A stretch of 64,000 nucleotides of DNA. Origin: Escherichia coli O157 typing phage 4. The notes under the pieces were generated by a model. The model saw nothing but the letters and a program-made list of their open reading frames with translations, searched no databases and was not told the origin of the DNA. Of this stretch, positions 3,754 through 11,017 are shown piece by piece. The translations under genes and the position numbers were made by a program. Positions within the stretch are counted from its first letter, which is position 1. Each line of letters starts with the position of its first letter. Location of the stretch: sequence record KP869102. One strand, 5' to 3'.

Positions 3754-4124
3754 TGATCGGTCTCCTTCTTGTTAAGTCTGAATACTGCAATAATAGCATT
3801 CCCAAGGTGCAGTGTCAAATCATTTCCAAGATACCACAACATTCCACGGTCATCTTTAATGAAAGGGTAACAATCTGGTGCCTTCCAGACATTGTACACT
3901 TTCCCAACCTGAAAGAAATCAGGCCCTGTTGGGATTTTGGTGCCAGGCCACACTTGGGATACCTGAACACACTCCACCTGCATAATAACAGGAATAGTCA
4001 TGGATGTAAATGTTTTTGTTGGTTCTACTACCATAAAAGTCTCCTCTTTGCTTAACAGCACCTCCCTGTGCTGATAGTTTACATTAGTGACAATCACCCC
4101 AGTTACGACCACACAAGTATTCAC
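3750..4124 (-). CDS. hypothetical protein (paralog family)
   Basis: ORF track 124 aa; KDDRGMLWYL motif. Confidence 0.5.
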   Translation of the reverse strand: MNTCVVVTGVIVTNVNYQHREVLLSKEETFMVVEPTKTFTSMTIPVIMQVECVQVSQVWPGTKIPTGPDFFQVGKVYNVWKAPDCYPFIKDDRGMLWYLGNDLTLHLGNAIIAVFRLNKKETDQ

Positions 4125-6861
4125 CTGTGATCTGGAACGGGACTCCCATCATTTTAGAAGCTTGCCAGAAGCAATGTACCACCATCTCGCCCACAGGGCT
4201 CCAGATAAGTTCAAGCTTTCCGTCATCGTTCAGGATAGGATCGTACACCGTGTTTCCGTCTCTGTCAACCACTTCGTTTCCGTTTTCATCCTTGCGTGCC
4301 TTTTTGTACTTATGACCGTCGAACACATGAAGTTTGGCCTCCTGCTCTGCCTTAAATGCTTCCAATTCTTCAATTGTGTCGAAGGTGTACACAGTCTTAT
4401 ACTTCGGTGTGTCAGGTACTTGAAGCTGATATTCGTCATGGTAATAGATAATACGACGAACACCTTCATCGTACCACCCACGCTTCACCATTTGGTGGTG
4501 CATAAGTATCCCAACTAAGTCACACAGCGATGCACCACCATTCTGTTGGTATGCATTAAGTAAAGAGTGTTTAGATCGGGTCCAGATGGCATGACCATCA
4601 AAAGAGTAGATAAACTTCTTACCCGTTGCTTCCCAGAATTTCTCCAGATCCTCTTTACGCCCCTTAAGACCAGGGTTGGCATCCCAAAGTGCATCGATCA
4701 CCCTTTGTCCCAACTCTGGAGAGATGTCCAGCATATCTGCAACTTTATCTTTTTGTGCCCCGTACATAACCCCATACGTGATAGGTTTACCGTCGTTACG
4801 AGACACCTCTCTGCCTGCTACTTTTGTATATGCCTCAGCATTGTTTTGGTGTGCGTCCCCGTTACTTACAACATCATAATACAAGCCGTTGTCGAACTCA
4901 AAGGCACCCCAAGCCCCGATAAGCTGCTCTAAGTTGGACCCGTCAATACCGATCTCAAAGTATCCTGGAGGAACACCCCACAAGCTACGCATCTCTTTAC
5001 CCATAACCACTTTAGGAGAGGGTTTAGGCATGTTTGCACAAATACTGTGTTTCTGTCTGGAAGTGTTTGTTAATCCAGAGCTTTTAGCAGGAAGCTTATG
5101 GTCAATCTTCAAACGTGGGTGATTAAGAAGACCAGTGTCAACCTTATCCTCCTTGATTGGATCAAGTACCGATCTGCGGTTTCGCAATGATAACCATAAG
5201 ACGATATCTTTAGCCATCTCTCCGTTCAATTTTTCAAGATTCGGACACAGGTGTCCAAACGTATCTTTCAGTTGCGGAGAAGTAATAAGTGCCCTAGCTT
5301 TTCTACGTATTTTCCCGAATACTTCCTTTTTAATCCTTTCGGAGTTAGGAAAGCTTCGGAACTTGTGCACGGTTGTCTGGAACTTAGCATCAGTTTTGTT
5401 CCAGAAGTTGATAATTAGGTCACAATACTCTGACTCTAAAAGCTCGTCCATATATGCATATACTCGTGCATCAACATCTGCATCAGGTAGAGCTTTCTTC
5501 TTGCTGTCTTTAGTTACATCCTTAGTTCTCCACATTGTCGGAAGCCAACCAGCACTGATCAGGTATCGCTTAATGTCGTCCTGATTGCTGATTTTCATAG
5601 GTATCTTGCAGTCCGGCATTCGCTTCTGCTGTAGATCACTTATTGCCTGATCCATTAGCTCTTTAGGTAAAGGTTGTGGTGTGGAGGTGCCCTTAATATA
5701 ACCTCTCAAGAAATCAGCCATCTTGTCGGGGTCTTTGCAGCCCATCTCTTCGCACCATTTTATCCCCATCTTGCTGACATCTCCTGTGGAGGTAAATGCT
5801 CGCTTAGGCGGGGCTTTGAACTCTAAAGCGCTCATGTCTACAGGATAGCCAAGCTTATCTTTTAACCATTTCCAACCATTATTGGAGATTGTCCCATCTT
5901 GGTTAAACGGCTTTTCAGGGAACTTGGGCCGCTGAGACATTGACAGCTCTTTTAAAGGTAGTTGTGGTTCAACACGATCAGCTATTTCTTTCATCCACGC
6001 ATCACAACGGTCACGTAAAGCAATAGCTCCATCTATGTCAAAATACACACCCTGACGGGCCTGCAGCTCCATCAGGAAGTGCTGCAGCATGCCTCGGCGT
6101 AGTGCGTTCTTCCAGGTGATCTTCTTGAACCCTTTCGGCTTCTCTTTGGCAGGATCGTACATAAAGTTCTGCATGTCAGATTTGCCGTAGAATACACCTT
6201 TTGATTCCGCTACCAGCTCTTTCCAGAGCAGCTCCTGGATGATAACGTCCTCGAATACACGATCCACATACTTCCACAATGGAAGATCGCGCCAGTCATC
6301 AATTTGAACTTTCTGGTTACCAAGGGCGTAGCCCCATGCCATAAGGCCGTGAGGACCAACAGGCTGCATTTTCTTAGTAACCGGGTTGAATACAGAGTCC
6401 GGACAACCTTTTGGTAAAGGGCGATCAGGCCACAAGATTCGGCTCATCGCCAACGTATCAAACAGATTAACCTGGTGGTCGTTGATAGTCCCCATGCATT
6501 TAGGATCACGGAACATATCAAAATGAATACCGGATAATCTTTCCATCAGCATAAAGTCATAACTGTAGCAGTTATGGCAGTTCAAAGCTGTTGGTGACCA
6601 GTCGGAATTTCCTGTAAGCCAACCTTCCAACTCCGAAAAATCTGCTATGCGAACTTCAAAATCTTTATAAAGAGTTTTCTTTGCCAGAATAAAGTTCTTA
6701 GCCTTCTCTATATCCTCCTCGGAGTAGTGTGTGCGGTCATTTAGAGGAAGGAACAGCATAAAACGGTTCTTATTCAGCTCTTTAAACAGGCCGCAATGAT
6801 AATAAAGATCTGGGTCTTCCAAGAGCCCGGAGGCCTCCAGATCGAAGCACCAATTACTCAT
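4084..6861 (-). CDS. DNA polymerase, family A (Pol I/T7-like) with 3'-5' exonuclease domain
   Basis: 925 aa; exo motif FDLEASG; polymerase motif A-like DGSNLEQL, motif B KPITYGVMYG, motif C YYHDEYQ. Confidence 0.9.
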   Translation of the reverse strand: MSNWCFDLEASGLLEDPDLYYHCGLFKELNKNRFMLFLPLNDRTHYSEEDIEKAKNFILAKKTLYKDFEVRIADFSELEGWLTGNSDWSPTALNCHNCYSYDFMLMERLSGIHFDMFRDPKCMGTINDHQVNLFDTLAMSRILWPDRPLPKGCPDSVFNPVTKKMQPVGPHGLMAWGYALGNQKVQIDDWRDLPLWKYVDRVFEDVIIQELLWKELVAESKGVFYGKSDMQNFMYDPAKEKPKGFKKITWKNALRRGMLQHFLMELQARQGVYFDIDGAIALRDRCDAWMKEIADRVEPQLPLKELSMSQRPKFPEKPFNQDGTISNNGWKWLKDKLGYPVDMSALEFKAPPKRAFTSTGDVSKMGIKWCEEMGCKDPDKMADFLRGYIKGTSTPQPLPKELMDQAISDLQQKRMPDCKIPMKISNQDDIKRYLISAGWLPTMWRTKDVTKDSKKKALPDADVDARVYAYMDELLESEYCDLIINFWNKTDAKFQTTVHKFRSFPNSERIKKEVFGKIRRKARALITSPQLKDTFGHLCPNLEKLNGEMAKDIVLWLSLRNRRSVLDPIKEDKVDTGLLNHPRLKIDHKLPAKSSGLTNTSRQKHSICANMPKPSPKVVMGKEMRSLWGVPPGYFEIGIDGSNLEQLIGAWGAFEFDNGLYYDVVSNGDAHQNNAEAYTKVAGREVSRNDGKPITYGVMYGAQKDKVADMLDISPELGQRVIDALWDANPGLKGRKEDLEKFWEATGKKFIYSFDGHAIWTRSKHSLLNAYQQNGGASLCDLVGILMHHQMVKRGWYDEGVRRIIYYHDEYQLQVPDTPKYKTVYTFDTIEELEAFKAEQEAKLHVFDGHKYKKARKDENGNEVVDRDGNTVYDPILNDDGKLELIWSPVGEMVVHCFWQASKMMGVPFQITGEYLCGRNWGDCH

Positions 6862-7592
6862 ACTGTCTCCTCCTGTGTCTTCTCAGCATTCTTTCTTGCA
6901 GCTATTGCATCGTCCCTGTTCTTGAAATACCCAAGGCATTTCCTTTTACCATCTACATAAATTCTGGCTACCCATCTTTCATGGGTTTTATCCCAATTCA
7001 CCCCTGAGCAACCGCTGGTGTTATTATACTGCACGGCTCTTCCACTCTTGTGCGAAAAACCATTATCTTCGAAGAACTTTCTTGCCCACTCTGCCTCTTC
7101 AAAAGTTCTGTACTGGCCTAGCCAGACCCTTTCACCTACAGAGTCTGTGCCTTGAGCTACCCACGCCTCTCTTTCTTCAGAATAGTGCACCCCGACCCTG
7201 CCAGATTTGTTGTTGCTACGAGGTATCTTGCAACTTTTCTTTTTGTTATCTGTAGGTTCGAGTAGTTGCAAATTTTGAATACTGTTGTCAGCCACACCAC
7301 CTGTTTCCCTTATCTCCTTGATGTGGTCAACCTCATACCCTTCTGGTACAGGACCGTTAAACATTTCCCAGATTATAACGTGGGCACCTTTAGTGCAATG
7401 CTTTCCTAGACTAACCACAGGCCTGCCATCAGCATCTTGCCCCTTGTCAGCTCTGGAGCCTGCTGAAGTTTTAACATATCCTACACCGCTGCCTGCCAGA
7501 ATGTCTATCTTCCAAAAAAGATTTTGACCGTCATACTCCAATATTTCTGACCACAAGTGATTGGCTACACAGTGATCTCTGAACTCGTTCAT
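6858..7592 (-). CDS. HNH homing endonuclease with two AP2 DNA-binding domains
   Basis: 244 aa; HNH_3-like VIIWEMFNGPVPEGYEVDHI...NLQLL; two AP2-like repeats (GVHYSEEREAWVAQ, GVNWDKTHERWVARI); free-standing between pol and primase-helicase. Confidence 0.85.
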   Translation of the reverse strand: MNEFRDHCVANHLWSEILEYDGQNLFWKIDILAGSGVGYVKTSAGSRADKGQDADGRPVVSLGKHCTKGAHVIIWEMFNGPVPEGYEVDHIKEIRETGGVADNSIQNLQLLEPTDNKKKSCKIPRSNNKSGRVGVHYSEEREAWVAQGTDSVGERVWLGQYRTFEEAEWARKFFEDNGFSHKSGRAVQYNNTSGCSGVNWDKTHERWVARIYVDGKRKCLGYFKNRDDAIAARKNAEKTQEETV

Positions 7593-7650
7593 AAAGTGTT
7601 CTCCTTAAAGGGGAGGCGGTTGTACTACCCCTCCCACTCTTTGTTAAACA

Positions 7651-9729
7651 TTAAAAAGGTGTTTCATCATCCTCAAAACCAGGAACATGGTCAGAGGACG
7701 GATCATCGTACTGGAGGTCTTCCTGCGTGTCAACAGGCTTAACAGTAGGAGTTACAACCTTATCAGCCACAACCTTACCCATAGGTGTTTCTACAACTGC
7801 ATGCTCCTGATCCTCAAACATAGCCTGAGGTCTCCAAACAACCTCCCCACCTTCTCCATCTGTAAACATTTGCATTTCTTTGTCCCAGTACCAATTACTG
7901 GCATCATGGAACTTACCTGTATGTGGGTCCATAACCAAAGTGTCTGCAATACCTAAAGTTTTTGCTGGACGGTTTTTAAGACCTACCAGTCGGACACGCC
8001 CACGAGAACGATCCACCATTTCTTCGGCCTCGACACCTATGACTACCCAACTCAACTGTTCAAGCCCAGCCGATCCTCGCAAATTCTCTTTTCGCACAGG
8101 ATACCAGAAAGGTAACGGGTTACCATCCTTGTCCTTAGGAGGCACAATCTCTGTACGTTTGAGGTGAGCGATCACCAAGATAAACACATTGAACTGCTTA
8201 CAAAACGCAGCCAGCTGGGTCATAGCCATGTCCAGTTCTTTTCGCTCATCCTTAACATTAAGCCCCGAAATTACCATGGACAGGTGATCCAGCACAATAT
8301 AACGGCAATGGTACAGGCAAACCATTTGCTTAAGCTTGGTAATCAACTCGTCCACCGGAATAGACCCGAAATGTTTGAACACTTTGATTTTTCCAGCTTT
8401 TGCCCATGATTGGTGAATCTCTGCGTGTTCTTGATCAGTTAAAAACTGGCTAGGATCTTCAACAAACTCTTTAACATCAAACCCTAGCTGGTTTGCATAC
8501 AAGGAGTTAATTGCTTCCTCTGGGTCCTCCTCAAGATGGATCATGCATAGACGATCATCCTCTTCATAGTCATCGGCCTTCGGGCATGTCGGGTCCATCA
8601 AGTATCTTGCAATACAATGTTCCAGTTTTTTAGCTACAGTTGTTTTACCGCCCCCTGATGGCCCTGTAAGCATTACGAGTGTCCCTTTGTGCAAGCCTTT
8701 TAGCATTTTTTGCAGTTTTGGAAACTCTGCGCTGATATCTACCCCGTTGGAAGTCTTTTTCCGCAAAGATTCGATAGAGAAGTCTTCTAAATCCGACACA
8801 GCATCAGGCACATACTTAACAGGATGCCGGAACATGTTTACAATATCTTCCAGCTTTTTAGCCTTTAGCATGTCACGGATATCTTTTACACCGTCAGGAT
8901 CGTTTACCTCACCGGGGTATTCTACGTGGTAAACGTTATCAGCCATCAAAAATGCTGCGATATTGTGCGTGGCCTCAACACCTTTAATGACGTGTTTTTG
9001 CTTCTCTACCTCGTTAGCTGCATCGTTATCCATTGCCAGCACAACTGTTCCATAGCTACGGATAAACTTCTCATTGTTTGCAAAAGTATCTACTGCGTTT
9101 GCACATCCACAGTTAATTCCAACAAAAGGCAGGCATGGTTTTCCTGCCAGATCGCCACCGTTGATAACTGCATCGATCCCGTCCTGGACCTCTTTAGCCC
9201 ACTGTTTCACCTTTGCCGGGGCTTTAGCGTTGGTGAGAATCCCTTTTACTTGTATCTGATATGCAGCCTGCCATGCTGCAATAACATCACCTTCTCCCTC
9301 ACAAACGTTAATCTGCTTACGGTTGTTGGAAGATGCACACAGCTTTTGACCAAACATCTGAGAGTTAGCCTTTACTATGCCAACAACGGAGAAATGGCCT
9401 CTTTGCTCTTTAGGAATCGTCCAGTCACGCTTTTTGAAACCGGACAGATTTCCGTAGCGGTCGTAATATGGGAAATATGTTGCAGTGACTGTCACACCAT
9501 CTTCTTGGGATAATGCTGATCGCACACCAAAATATTGTGCAGCCATCAGACCGATATTTTGTTGTGGGACAGGGACAATTTTAGTATTTTCTAAAACAGT
9601 CTCTACAGTTTCAACTTCTTTTTCATCACGATAGTCTCGTTTCACACTTCCCCCACTTTTATACTTAGTTGCTTTCGGGTTTGGCTCACCGAAACGGTTG
9701 TATGCAGATGCCATAAATTTACTTCCCAT
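7651..9729 (-). CDS. bifunctional primase-helicase (T7 gp4-like: TOPRIM primase + DnaB-family helicase)
   Basis: 692 aa; TOPRIM VCEGEGD and MDNDAANE; Walker A TGPSGGGKT; Walker B IVLDHLSMV; acidic C-terminal tail ending in Phe. Confidence 0.9.
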   Translation of the reverse strand: MGSKFMASAYNRFGEPNPKATKYKSGGSVKRDYRDEKEVETVETVLENTKIVPVPQQNIGLMAAQYFGVRSALSQEDGVTVTATYFPYYDRYGNLSGFKKRDWTIPKEQRGHFSVVGIVKANSQMFGQKLCASSNNRKQINVCEGEGDVIAAWQAAYQIQVKGILTNAKAPAKVKQWAKEVQDGIDAVINGGDLAGKPCLPFVGINCGCANAVDTFANNEKFIRSYGTVVLAMDNDAANEVEKQKHVIKGVEATHNIAAFLMADNVYHVEYPGEVNDPDGVKDIRDMLKAKKLEDIVNMFRHPVKYVPDAVSDLEDFSIESLRKKTSNGVDISAEFPKLQKMLKGLHKGTLVMLTGPSGGGKTTVAKKLEHCIARYLMDPTCPKADDYEEDDRLCMIHLEEDPEEAINSLYANQLGFDVKEFVEDPSQFLTDQEHAEIHQSWAKAGKIKVFKHFGSIPVDELITKLKQMVCLYHCRYIVLDHLSMVISGLNVKDERKELDMAMTQLAAFCKQFNVFILVIAHLKRTEIVPPKDKDGNPLPFWYPVRKENLRGSAGLEQLSWVVIGVEAEEMVDRSRGRVRLVGLKNRPAKTLGIADTLVMDPHTGKFHDASNWYWDKEMQMFTDGEGGEVVWRPQAMFEDQEHAVVETPMGKVVADKVVTPTVKPVDTQEDLQYDDPSSDHVPGFEDDETPF

Positions 9730-10513
9730 TAATTCTGCTCCTTACTACAGGCTCGTTTGCTAAGAATACGGCTTTTGCCCAGCCACGTGGTGTGAGGCTT
9801 CGAATCATCTTCGTTCTTGCACTCTTTCCACCCAGCTTGGCGTGTTGCATGGAATACCCGCTAACCACGTCAACTATTTGCGGGACAGGTTTTGTGGCCG
9901 GGATTATAAATCCATTACCTATCCAGCCGCAAGTTATTTTTGGATAGGCATCACGTGGAGCTATAAATTCAGGAAACCATGGGTTTACATCATCTTCCGG
10001 TAAATACCCGCCATAGTCAGAAGGATGAAAACGGTAATCAGGTTTGCGCCACAGTGTGGACATAACACCTACAGGATTCTCTACATGCCACGGGCAATCG
10101 TAAATCTCTCCCAGCTCTTCCGCAACCCGAGCATCCCTTACAGCATTAATTTGGATCATGGGGTCCTTAGCCAGCTTTTTCTTAAAATGTGCAGCACCTG
10201 ATACCGCTAAATGCGTGCACGGAGGAAATGCAAGAATAAAGTCTGGAGCTGGGTACATGCAAAAAGTTTCCTGAGGGAACCATGGGTCAATCCAATAATC
10301 CACATAGTGAATGTTGGGATGATCGGTTATCACCTCTGCATAACTGCCGTGATCAGCACCTTCTGCATTAAAGCACAGGCACAGATACCCAGCTTTTGCC
10401 CAGTCAATGACTGCACCACCAGATCCGTCAAATAGGCTCCACACAACACCTTTGTGGTAGTGTTCTTTGTAGATAAATTTCAATTTGCTGTCTCCTAATG
10501 CAAAAAGCCCCAC
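9719..10513 (-). CDS. short C5-cytosine methyltransferase-like protein (no obvious target-recognition domain)
   Basis: Motif I-like LFDGSGG, motif IV-like FPPCTHLAVSG, motif VI-like ENPVGV; track start is GTG inside an upstream hairpin, TTG near 10483 with AGGAGA RBS is more likely. Confidence 0.6.
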   Translation of the reverse strand: MGLFALGDSKLKFIYKEHYHKGVVWSLFDGSGGAVIDWAKAGYLCLCFNAEGADHGSYAEVITDHPNIHYVDYWIDPWFPQETFCMYPAPDFILAFPPCTHLAVSGAAHFKKKLAKDPMIQINAVRDARVAEELGEIYDCPWHVENPVGVMSTLWRKPDYRFHPSDYGGYLPEDDVNPWFPEFIAPRDAYPKITCGWIGNGFIIPATKPVPQIVDVVSGYSMQHAKLGGKSARTKMIRSLTPRGWAKAVFLANEPVVRSRINGK

Positions 10514-10534
10514 CCTTTCGGGCAGGGCCTAGTG

Positions 10535-11017
10535 TTAAACCCGGATACCTATTGTATACTCGGTGGATACCAATGTCAAATCTAAATTTAAAATTTCTTG
10601 CATCTCATAATATGCGTCCAGGGTGAGATACATTTCCCCATCCTTTTCTACATACTTGTCCAAGTGCTTGAGGCATTTCGGATAACTATCGAGTGCAGCT
10701 TTCAGACACTCAAACTCTGTGCTGTTGATGAGTCCTTCCATCTTGGCTACCCGTTCTGGGGTAACGATAGCACTGTAGTGAGATTTAGCTTCCTGAATGC
10801 AATGGGTCCAAGCATCAACTTTCTCTTCGAAAAGCCCGAAGAATTTCTTTTTGGTGAGCTTCAGATTCTTTAAGTGCTTAAGCACTCGGTTGCCGATCAC
10901 AGCCACATCACGAAACTTAAGGATCACTTTGTCGATATCCTCGCGGCCTATTTTCACAAAGCAAGCCTCACACATTTCAGGAGCTGCGTAACCTACTTTC
11001 CACATAAAATCTGACAT
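10535..11017 (-). CDS. hypothetical protein
   Basis: ORF track 160 aa. Confidence 0.5.
   Translation of the reverse strand: MSDFMWKVGYAAPEMCEACFVKIGREDIDKVILKFRDVAVIGNRVLKHLKNLKLTKKKFFGLFEEKVDAWTHCIQEAKSHYSAIVTPERVAKMEGLINSTEFECLKAALDSYPKCLKHLDKYVEKDGEMYLTLDAYYEMQEILNLDLTLVSTEYTIGIRV

Follow-up and report, generated by a model that had tools for sequence, protein, structure and literature searches.

The gene that stands between the DNA polymerase and primase-helicase genes of Escherichia phage JES2013 is very probably a free-standing HNH(HNN)-AP2 homing endonuclease, a selfish element inserted precisely at the DNA polymerase start codon. The window analysed here is a 64,000-nucleotide stretch of DNA whose sequence is that of JES2013, an rV5-like Vequintavirus, and the JES2013 coordinates given below are window positions. 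The gene occupies 6858-7592 on the minus strand and encodes a 244-aa protein, as determined from the open reading frame (ORF) call, Pfam and PHROG matches, alignments, an AF2 model and Foldseek; its existing annotation is putative homing endonuclease, and a literature search found no paper on the protein. Its downstream neighbour is the family A DNA polymerase (4084-6861, minus strand; 925 aa, uninterrupted; PHROG 8888/17) and its upstream neighbour a DnaB-like primase-helicase (7651-9729, minus strand; DnaB_C; PHROG 239); both are on the minus strand, so the endonuclease gene lies between the two, as a preliminary description of this region had stated. The four-nucleotide overlap with the polymerase start claimed there was recovered as ATGA, which joins the endonuclease stop codon TGA (6860-6858) to the polymerase ATG (6861-6859). 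Within the span of 6858-7650 given there, the ORF ends at 7592, and positions 7593-7650 form a 58-nt intergenic spacer towards the primase-helicase. The gene has its own ATG behind an AAGGAG motif and lies between two complete ORFs, that is, it is free-standing; an intron or intein context was rejected because the polymerase is uninterrupted and of the same length as in non-carriers.

The protein comprises an N-terminal region, an HNH_3 'HNN' domain (residues ~68-120) and two AP2 domains (~127-178 and ~191-243). The HNH-AP2 assignment of the preliminary description was confirmed by matches to PF13392 (HNH_3; residues 68-116, E=5 × 10−12, 45.7 bits, above the cut-off of 24.8), to Pfam AP2 in two stretches (30.9 bits, slightly below the gathering cut-off of 33.3) and to PHROG 99, 'HNH endonuclease' (E=2 × 10−51). 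The residues of the HNN motif are D89-H90, N103, N107 and N116; in alignments of homologues down to ~25% identity, H90, N107 and the adjoining L108 were invariant, and D89, N103 and N116 invariant or nearly so. No cysteine pairs (CxxC) were found around the motif in the sequence. The AF2 model (mean pLDDT of 82.6) contains two three-strand-plus-helix units, E135-138/E143-149/E155-161/H164-177 and E198-201/E206-213/E216-223/H226-243, and Foldseek matched it to the DNA-bound tandem AP2 domains of WRINKLED1 (E=2 × 10−4) as well as to TEM1, ERF and ApiAP2. The nuclease region, for which a beta-beta-alpha metal finger would be expected, was modelled with good pLDDT as a strand (87-90), a helix (94-97), a second strand (108-111) and a second helix (113-120), and the sole nuclease among the top Foldseek matches was I-HmuI (1u3e), a weak match (E=0.049, probability 0.80, TM 0.27-0.36). 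A sequence search against PDB chains returned nothing meaningful (best matches betaine aldehyde dehydrogenase and ERF096, E~0.5), and no paralogue of the protein turned up elsewhere in the window by tblastn. By sequence, the protein is a member of the HNH_3/I-HmuI-like 'HNN' subgroup with two AP2 domains and a predicted nuclease activity, for which we infer cleavage, homing and marker exclusion.

The gene is sporadically distributed. Among 117 matching records of relatives, copies of at least 95% identity (tblastn) were present in nine, representing seven phages, and the gene is missing from over 90% of the very close relatives, whose neighbouring genes and spacer are identical. In a spread sample of 60 of the 117 records, two-piece matches across the junction came from carrier records only. 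Junctions were read in 19 genomes and four metagenomic loci, and in every non-carrier read (12 genomes) exactly 731 nt were absent with no remnants; the missing segment corresponds to 6864-7594 on the minus strand, a placement that can be shifted by a few nucleotides, and the insertion point is between the native ribosome-binding site of the polymerase and its ATG. The comparison of this junction in relatives, which the preliminary description had put forward as the way to judge its own proposal, thus yielded both gene-bearing phages and empty sites, and the sporadic presence, precise empty sites, mosaic flanks and low divergence of the gene (see below) support its reading as a selfish homing endonuclease. 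The GC content of the insert (45.4%) bears no foreign mark relative to the polymerase (45.2%) and the primase (44.7%). Very few substitutions separate the copies; those of JES2013 and five other phages are intact with conserved catalytic residues, and the ORF of HdK5 is split by the loss of one nucleotide from a run of GGG. A pattern scan of IMG/VR for the hairpin and Shine-Dalgarno sequence described below retrieved two contigs only, both non-carriers, and a metagenome scan with the AAGGAG prefix, a pattern that fits empty sites only, retrieved one contig from the same phage as an IMG/VR match.

Comparison of the junctions showed directly that, with the 731-nt insert in place, the ribosome-binding site native to the polymerase and the hairpin upstream of it come to stand before the endonuclease gene instead. 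The native Shine-Dalgarno sequence AAGGAG (7601-7606, minus strand; annotated as a ribosome-binding site in Murica) serves the polymerase in non-carriers and the endonuclease gene in JES2013. The insert brings a new AGGAGG ribosome-binding site and the ATGA stop/start overlap, so that the polymerase is still translated; this replacement Shine-Dalgarno sequence, AGGAGGAG (6867-6874, minus strand), is part of the 3'-terminal coding sequence of the endonuclease, with 5 nt separating it from the polymerase ATG, and is kept as AGGAGG in loci L021, L022 and L025. The spacer sequence ACTTT (7593-7597, minus strand) travels with the element, non-carriers having TGTAT at this position with the exception of Pr121LW, which has ACTTT. 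The GC hairpin that the preliminary description placed before the gene at about 7601-7633 is real but offset: it falls within 7610-7635 on the minus strand, with stem GGGAGGGGT (7635-7627), loop AGTACA and second arm ACC-G-CCTCCC (7620-7611), and 7601-7606 is the Shine-Dalgarno sequence. It precedes the gene as described, yet it is a native feature of the primase-polymerase spacer outside the mobile element, conserved in all relatives with compensatory stem changes in divergent phages. The hairpin was therefore rejected as a part of the element, whether terminator or recognition structure, since it is identical in non-carriers. Its folding energy by itself improves only modestly on chance (76-nt fold, −22.8 kcal/mol, z=−2.46; 6 of 200 shuffles equal or better), and with three T residues after it the hairpin was not classed as terminator-like in the promoter and terminator scan. 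The same scan gave no convincing promoter for the endonuclease gene, the two sigma-70-like matches being weak and close in number to the 1.7 that chance would give, and an Rfam search of window positions 6000-8200 gave no match at E≤1.

The history of the gene is discordant with that of its flanks, which by sequence comparison indicates horizontal spread. Across six carrier genomes, 8 of 730 sites segregate in the gene as compared with 185 of 2,750 in the flanks (90/1,380 and 95/1,370; Fisher P=1.7 × 10−11), so that the gene is ~6-fold less polymorphic than the adjoining essential genes, and the closest neighbours of the carrier flanks are non-carriers at 0.1% divergence. JES2013 and the non-carrier isim differ by 2 mismatches in ~3.3 kb upstream of the insert, then by 16 mismatches in the ~40 nt (42 nt) downstream of it, and by none in the following 280 nt (P=2 × 10−30). 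Homologues with 85, 81, 68 and 64% amino acid identity follow the primase-helicase and keep the 4-nt polymerase overlap in divergent metagenomic phages. Nucleotide identity to JES2013 was higher for the gene than for the adjacent polymerase in L021 (86.5% versus 69.6%) and L022 (78.0% versus 58.4%), and about equal for the two in L025 and L026 (71 versus 70% and 67 versus 68%). At the sequence level, the low divergence of the gene, the mosaic flanks, the linked substitutions in the polymerase 5' end and the use of the same site in divergent phages are clear signs of mobility.

These patterns can be accommodated by a homing cycle in which a carrier meets a relative without the gene in a mixed infection. 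The two AP2 domains would bind a long site and the I-HmuI-like His-Me finger domain would nick or cut at or near the 5' end of the polymerase gene, most probably within its first ~40 nt and/or across the insertion point, and repair by recombination with the carrier would transfer the gene, along with a short flank, to the genome that had been cut. The polymerase is the likely target gene; its first ~40 nt (6822-6863, minus strand), which encode the Exo I motif F-D-x-E and were delimited by comparing carriers with non-carriers, are a candidate target or immunity region plus co-converted flank. We infer this target site from linked polymorphism only: polymerase codons 3 (AAT), 5 (TGC) and 8 (CTG) are common to all seven carriers, CTG at codon 8 and GAGGCCTCCGGGCT, which belong to the carrier haplotype, also occur in the non-carriers IMGVR_279 and JEP1, and in the distant carrier L025 codon 3 remains ATG. 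Carriers would be spared through the interruption of the site by the insert and through the linked substitutions at these three codons. Enzymes of the I-HmuI type are able to nick carrier and non-carrier DNA alike, however, which may make the proposed immunity model inapplicable here. Among gene-free genomes, the first ~45 nt form the most polymorphic stretch of the polymerase 5' region (16 of 45 sites segregating versus 177 of 1,355), a pattern compatible with repeated rounds of invasion and loss and with selection of target variants that resist cleavage. On this basis we raise, as a rather speculative proposal, that these ~45 nt are an arms-race hotspot and that the element has in addition captured, with the hairpin and Shine-Dalgarno sequence, a possible translational operator of the polymerase, analogous to the translational operator of T4 gene 43; if true, the captured operator would couple the dosage of the endonuclease to regulation of the polymerase.

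Other readings of the gene were weighed against homing. Presence and absence data alone do not separate gain from loss, and the gene might be a passive accessory gene, gained once, inherited vertically and deleted many times, its patchiness reflecting loss and ordinary recombination. Such a history would predict the co-divergence of gene and polymerase seen in L025 and L026, and the carrier-type ACTTT of Pr121LW, where the gene is absent, could be a footprint of loss. It is nevertheless improbable given that the same 731 nt are missing without remnants at all 12 empty sites read, that the gene is several-fold less polymorphic than its essential neighbours, that JES2013 is far closer to L021 or L022 in the gene than in the polymerase, and that carrier flanks are within 0.1% of non-carrier flanks. 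General homologous recombination among the members of a mosaic population of phages could also have spread the insert without nuclease activity.

The dN/dS ratio of the endonuclease (0.07-0.24) indicates purifying selection through long divergence, and the gene is coupled to polymerase translation behind the polymerase's conserved hairpin and Shine-Dalgarno sequence and so would be expressed with the replication genes, features that would suit a domesticated protein of benefit to the phage: an AP2-type regulator of replication genes, or a means of marker exclusion that destroys the genomes of competitors, as free-standing T4 endonucleases are known to exclude competitor markers (PMC2330249, PMC2790892). 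We regard domestication as unlikely, because nearly all very close relatives manage with the same neighbours and spacer and no gene, and an actively homing element would likewise show purifying selection; competitor exclusion, moreover, follows from homing and is no true alternative to it. The split ORF of HdK5 raises the further idea of an inactive, decaying remnant with no cutting left, decay being the end of the standard life cycle of homing endonuclease genes. This is very improbable for the JES2013 gene in view of the six intact copies with catalytic residues kept and so few substitutions between them, and the primase-helicase in the HdK5 record is also split, suggesting sequencing errors.

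As a homing endonuclease gene, it is an ordinary member of an already known kind of element. I-HmuI and I-HmuII of the Bacillus phages SPO1 and SP82 likewise have an HNH_3 'HNN' domain free of zinc-binding cysteine pairs, elongated multi-domain DNA binding and a phage family A polymerase gene as target (putative for JES2013). The coding sequence of I-HmuI lies within a group I intron, and the enzyme has DNA-binding modules of the NUMOD/helix-turn-helix type; the JES2013 gene, in contrast, is free-standing, sits at the polymerase start codon and encodes two AP2 domains. Domain architecture and sporadic distribution are shared with the free-standing HNN-AP2 genes of Xp10/OP1/Xop411, T5, T1 and RB16/RB43, which are counted as putative homing endonuclease genes (PMC2248197, PMC2993671). 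The Xanthomonas phage genes have no conserved insertion context, and sequence-independent transfer was proposed for them (PMC2248197), whereas the JES2013 lineage holds one precise site across genus-level divergence. A positional parallel is the distant CB7_54 of Pectobacterium phage CB7 (Certrevirus, Vequintavirinae), which combines HNH with AP2, is directly upstream of and overlaps the polymerase start, and was not spliced by RT-PCR and hence is free-standing (PMC7344957); it differs in being 188 aa long with a single AP2 domain, in having 24-36% identity to the JES2013 protein and in following a structural-protein gene rather than a primase-helicase. T4 MobE and SegB/SegG resemble the JES2013 gene in being intergenic, between essential DNA-metabolism genes, with the neighbouring conserved gene as their target, flank co-conversion, and exclusion of competitor markers in mixed infection (PMC2790892, PMC2330249), a way of life predicted for the JES2013 gene too. 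The Seg proteins are GIY-YIG enzymes and MobE is an HNH enzyme without AP2, and these T4 systems are known from experiment, the JES2013 gene from sequence.

Phages abound in HNH-AP2 endonucleases; to our knowledge, however, the target site has been mapped for almost none of them. The donor and recipient alleles represented by JES2013 and isim are nearly alike outside the element, as the 3.3 kb upstream illustrate, so that homing, co-conversion length and target-site immunity are directly testable in existing E. coli phages. The AP2 domain of these enzymes is thought to be ancestral to the AP2/ERF transcription factors of plants and the ApiAP2 factors of apicomplexans (Magnani et al. 2004, as cited in PMC2248197). 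Furthermore, such elements distort the phylogenies and synteny of Vequintavirus genomes in phage therapy and biocontrol use, a distortion remarked on for the BASEL collection (PMC8594841).

A separate observation concerns the WalterGehring locus, where an Rfam search gave nothing at the gathering score and where a second insertion, internal to the polymerase gene, was seen.

By megablast, Escherichia phage JES2013 (KC690136 / NC_022323) matched positions 4000-10600 of the window at 100% identity, and a further 121 Vequintavirus (rV5-like) records matched the same region, mostly at 90-99%. In RefSeq the gene of interest is P766_gp211 ('HNH endonuclease'), flanked by gp210 (DNA polymerase) and gp212 (the primase-helicase, labelled AAA family ATPase). 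The preliminary description of an HNH-AP2 gene lying on the polymerase start was borne out: the gene is a 244-aa ORF on the minus strand (6858..7592), and its stop codon TGA (6860-6858) shares bases with the polymerase ATG (6861-6859). The span of 6858-7650 originally assigned to it, however, was too long, since the ORF ends at 7592 and the remainder, up to 7650, is a 58-nt intergenic spacer on the primase side.

The encoded protein carries a Pfam HNH_3 domain at residues 68-116 (E=5e-12, above threshold) and two AP2 stretches scoring 30.9 bits, slightly below the threshold of 33.3; it also matched the PHROGs family phrog_99 ('HNH endonuclease', E=2e-51). Across the alignments D89-H90, D102-N103, N107-L108 and N116 are kept, and an NN(K/T)SG motif opens each AP2 unit. 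On its sequence, the protein is classed as an 'HNN' variant without zinc-binding cysteine pairs, a type to which I-HmuI likewise belongs. An AlphaFold2 model built from an alignment of 26 sequences (mean pLDDT 82.6) displayed elements consistent with the expected beta-beta-alpha core, together with two modules, each of three strands plus a helix. When the model was compared with the PDB using Foldseek, AP2 matches were obtained to DNA-bound WRINKLED1 (E=2e-4), Toxoplasma mitoribosomal ApiAP2-like proteins, TEM1 and ERF, and a further match to I-HmuI (1u3e; E=0.049); the TM-scores of the matches were low, which is expected of a flexible protein with three domains. At E<=1e-3 the wider family is very large, comprising 14,140 cluster representatives, gathered chiefly through the AP2 units, among which the lineage of this gene is confined to one 50% cluster. 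The dN/dS values of 0.07-0.24 argue that the protein is maintained by selection. We conclude that the JES2013 gene is a typical free-standing phage homing endonuclease gene of the HNN-AP2 class, resembling T4 MobE and the Seg proteins in lifestyle and I-HmuI in catalytic type; the 'HNN' variant has been described among phage HNN-AP2 endonucleases (PMC2248197). Public records already name it 'putative HNH endonuclease' or 'putative homing endonuclease', and our literature search did not find a paper analysing the element.

The proposal that this is a homing-type insert was supported by comparing presence and absence among relatives. Using tblastn, copies at 98.8-100% identity were found only in JES2013, HdK5, navn, WalterGehring, FFH2 and the 'Campylobacter phage' C2 and C5 (nine records, seven phages), the next-best matches being ~44% identical proteins of unrelated siphoviruses. 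An empty-site probe of 458 nt, taken from phage nomine, matched 117 records; of the 60 that were listed, carriers alone matched it in two pieces. The gene is thus not universal, and empty-site alleles exist that differ by a 731-nt block (6864-7594), located between the ribosome-binding site and the polymerase ATG. The 58-nt spacer, with its hairpin and AAGGAG, is shared by both allele types; in non-carriers it precedes the polymerase, and in carriers it stands before the HNH gene. As read from the sequence, the insert's own ATG opens the block where the polymerase ATG would stand, and its 3' end is AGGAGGAGACAGT-ATGA, thereby supplying a replacement ribosome-binding site and coupling polymerase translation to the HNH stop codon. 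Among four divergent metagenomic phage contigs with homologues, the AGGAGG...ATGA layout recurs in L021, L022 and L025, and in L026 the ATGA overlap is kept behind CGGAGG. The non-carrier Escherichia phage Pr121LW has the carrier-type spacer ACTTT, not TGTAT, before the polymerase ATG, which could be a footprint of element loss or resemble the ancestral pre-insertion site. In the HdK5 copy, loss of 1 nt from a GGG run (equivalent of window position 7129) splits the ORF in two; because the primase-helicase gene is also split in that record, sequencing error and real decay are equally likely.

The preliminary description had also placed a GC hairpin at about 7601-7633; the hairpin exists, but it occupies 7610-7635 (minus strand; stem GGGAGGGGT paired with ACC(G)CCTCCC, loop AGTACA; -22.8 kcal/mol, z=-2.46), and the Shine-Dalgarno sequence AAGGAG directly after it lies at 7606-7601. 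Its sequence is the same whether or not the HNH gene is present, and divergent phages show compensatory stem changes with the loop core AGTACA kept (for example, GAGGGCCG...CGGTCCCTC in L022), so that it represents a native element of the primase-polymerase spacer, immediately upstream of the ribosome-binding site. It had no Rfam match and was not terminator-like in a pattern scan; a translational operator and a processing site are possibilities.

Evidence for movement among close relatives came from the comparison of the gene with its flanks. The six full-length copies contained 8 segregating sites in 730 nt, as against 90/1380 at the 3' end of the primase gene and 95/1370 in the polymerase of the same genomes (Fisher P=1.7e-11). 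Selection does not explain this difference, because both flanking genes are essential and constrained; recent common ancestry of the copies does. The flanks of carriers are most similar to those of non-carriers, with 0.1% divergence in the primase gene between JES2013 and isim, and likewise between WalterGehring and C2 on the one hand and nomine and MaxTheCat on the other. Between JES2013 and isim there are 2 mismatches in ~3.3 kb upstream, 2 at 7596-7597, the 731-nt indel, 16 mismatches in 6822-6863 and none in the next 280 nt, followed by ordinary scattered differences (cluster versus upstream, P=2e-30); the differing unit is therefore ~6822-7597, the gene and a very short flank. Polymerase codons 3 (AAT), 5 (TGC) and 8 (CTG) are common to all seven carriers, whereas non-carriers have ATG at codon 3, TCK, AGC or AAT at codon 5 and, with the exception of one having CTG, TTT at codon 8.

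The same site is occupied in more distant phages. Homologues in a large protein database showed 85, 81, 68, 64, 63 and 62% identity, and all four that were looked up lie directly after a DnaB-like primase-helicase gene with a 4-nt overlap onto the next gene, the polymerase; their contigs are genus-level relatives. The L021 polymerase has only ~71% DNA identity to any isolated phage, the best match being a Vequintavirus. The HNH genes of L021 and L022 are 86.5% and 78.0% identical in DNA to the JES2013 copy, compared with 69.6% and 58.4% in the adjacent 1.5 kb of polymerase, and in L021 the synonymous divergence of the gene (pS 0.31) is far from the saturation seen in polymerase and primase (0.81-0.87); this points to transfer of the gene into this one site across divergent lineages. 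In L025 and L026 gene and polymerase are about equally diverged, consistent with long co-residence. Certrevirus CB7 encodes a 188-aa HNH-AP2 protein (24-36% identity), likewise on the polymerase start, and RT-PCR demonstrated that its gene is free-standing rather than spliced out (PMC7344957). L026 also carries a second, 35% identical HNH-AP2 gene (1200-1871) just upstream of the primase-helicase gene, and the primase-helicase ORFs of L022 (944-3934; 996 aa) and L025 (1-3936; >1347 aa), compared with 692 aa in JES2013, suggest inteins or other insertions.

Architecture, precise insertion, takeover of the polymerase translation signals, patchy distribution, discordant divergence and a tight block of linked substitutions were observed directly. 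In the most likely mechanism, the enzyme would recognise a long site at the polymerase 5' end of genomes without the gene and nick or cut there, recombinational repair would copy the gene with a short flank, and the insert and altered polymerase codons would protect carriers. The likely target codes for the Exo I motif (F-D-x-E-x-S-G-L), conserved active-site sequences being what homing endonucleases typically exploit. The carrier haplotype is also partly present in some non-carriers, and distant carriers differ at codon 3; I-HmuI-type enzymes may nick both alleles. In nine close non-carriers (L001, L003, L005, L006, L013-L016 and L019), the first 45 nt of the polymerase (6817-6861) contained 16 segregating sites, compared with 177 across the 1355 nt that follow (Fisher P=1.5e-4). 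Over the full 1.4 kb, polymorphism peaks in the 45-nt window beginning at nt 10, and among the changes in the first 45 nt are non-synonymous substitutions at codons 4, 5, 8 and 10, surrounding the Exo I motif. This pattern is suggestive only, whether of footprints of earlier invasions and losses or of selection for resistant target variants. The JES2013 locus is chiefly of value in offering experiments a very clean, naturally occurring donor/recipient pair.

In the rV5 RefSeq record (NC_011041), polymerase codon 6 contains an extra nucleotide (TGGTCTCTTCGAT versus TGGTCTTTCGAT), probably a sequencing error; the resulting frameshift leaves the polymerase annotated ~150 aa short, at 775 aa (PMC3606486) versus 925 aa in relatives. 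The polymerase of isim, WalterGehring, FFH2 and APECc02 carries a second insertion, 842 nt long and containing a 168-aa HNH ORF (742-1574 in both L003 and L002), between 4438 and 4437 on the minus strand, within the codons for the motif 'YYHDEY'. BASEL annotates this polymerase as joined (intron) and other records as two polymerase ORFs; no group I intron was detected in Rfam at gathering score. JES2013 is empty at this site and is set apart from the alleles with the insertion by 8 changes in a row at third codon positions just downstream (4405-4435). Finally, MG065655, MG065659 and 14 other UNVERIFIED 'Campylobacter phage' GenBank records carry a Campylobacter jejuni phage label and share 97-98% identity with E. 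coli vequintaviruses across the 6.6-kb region; the host label is doubtful.
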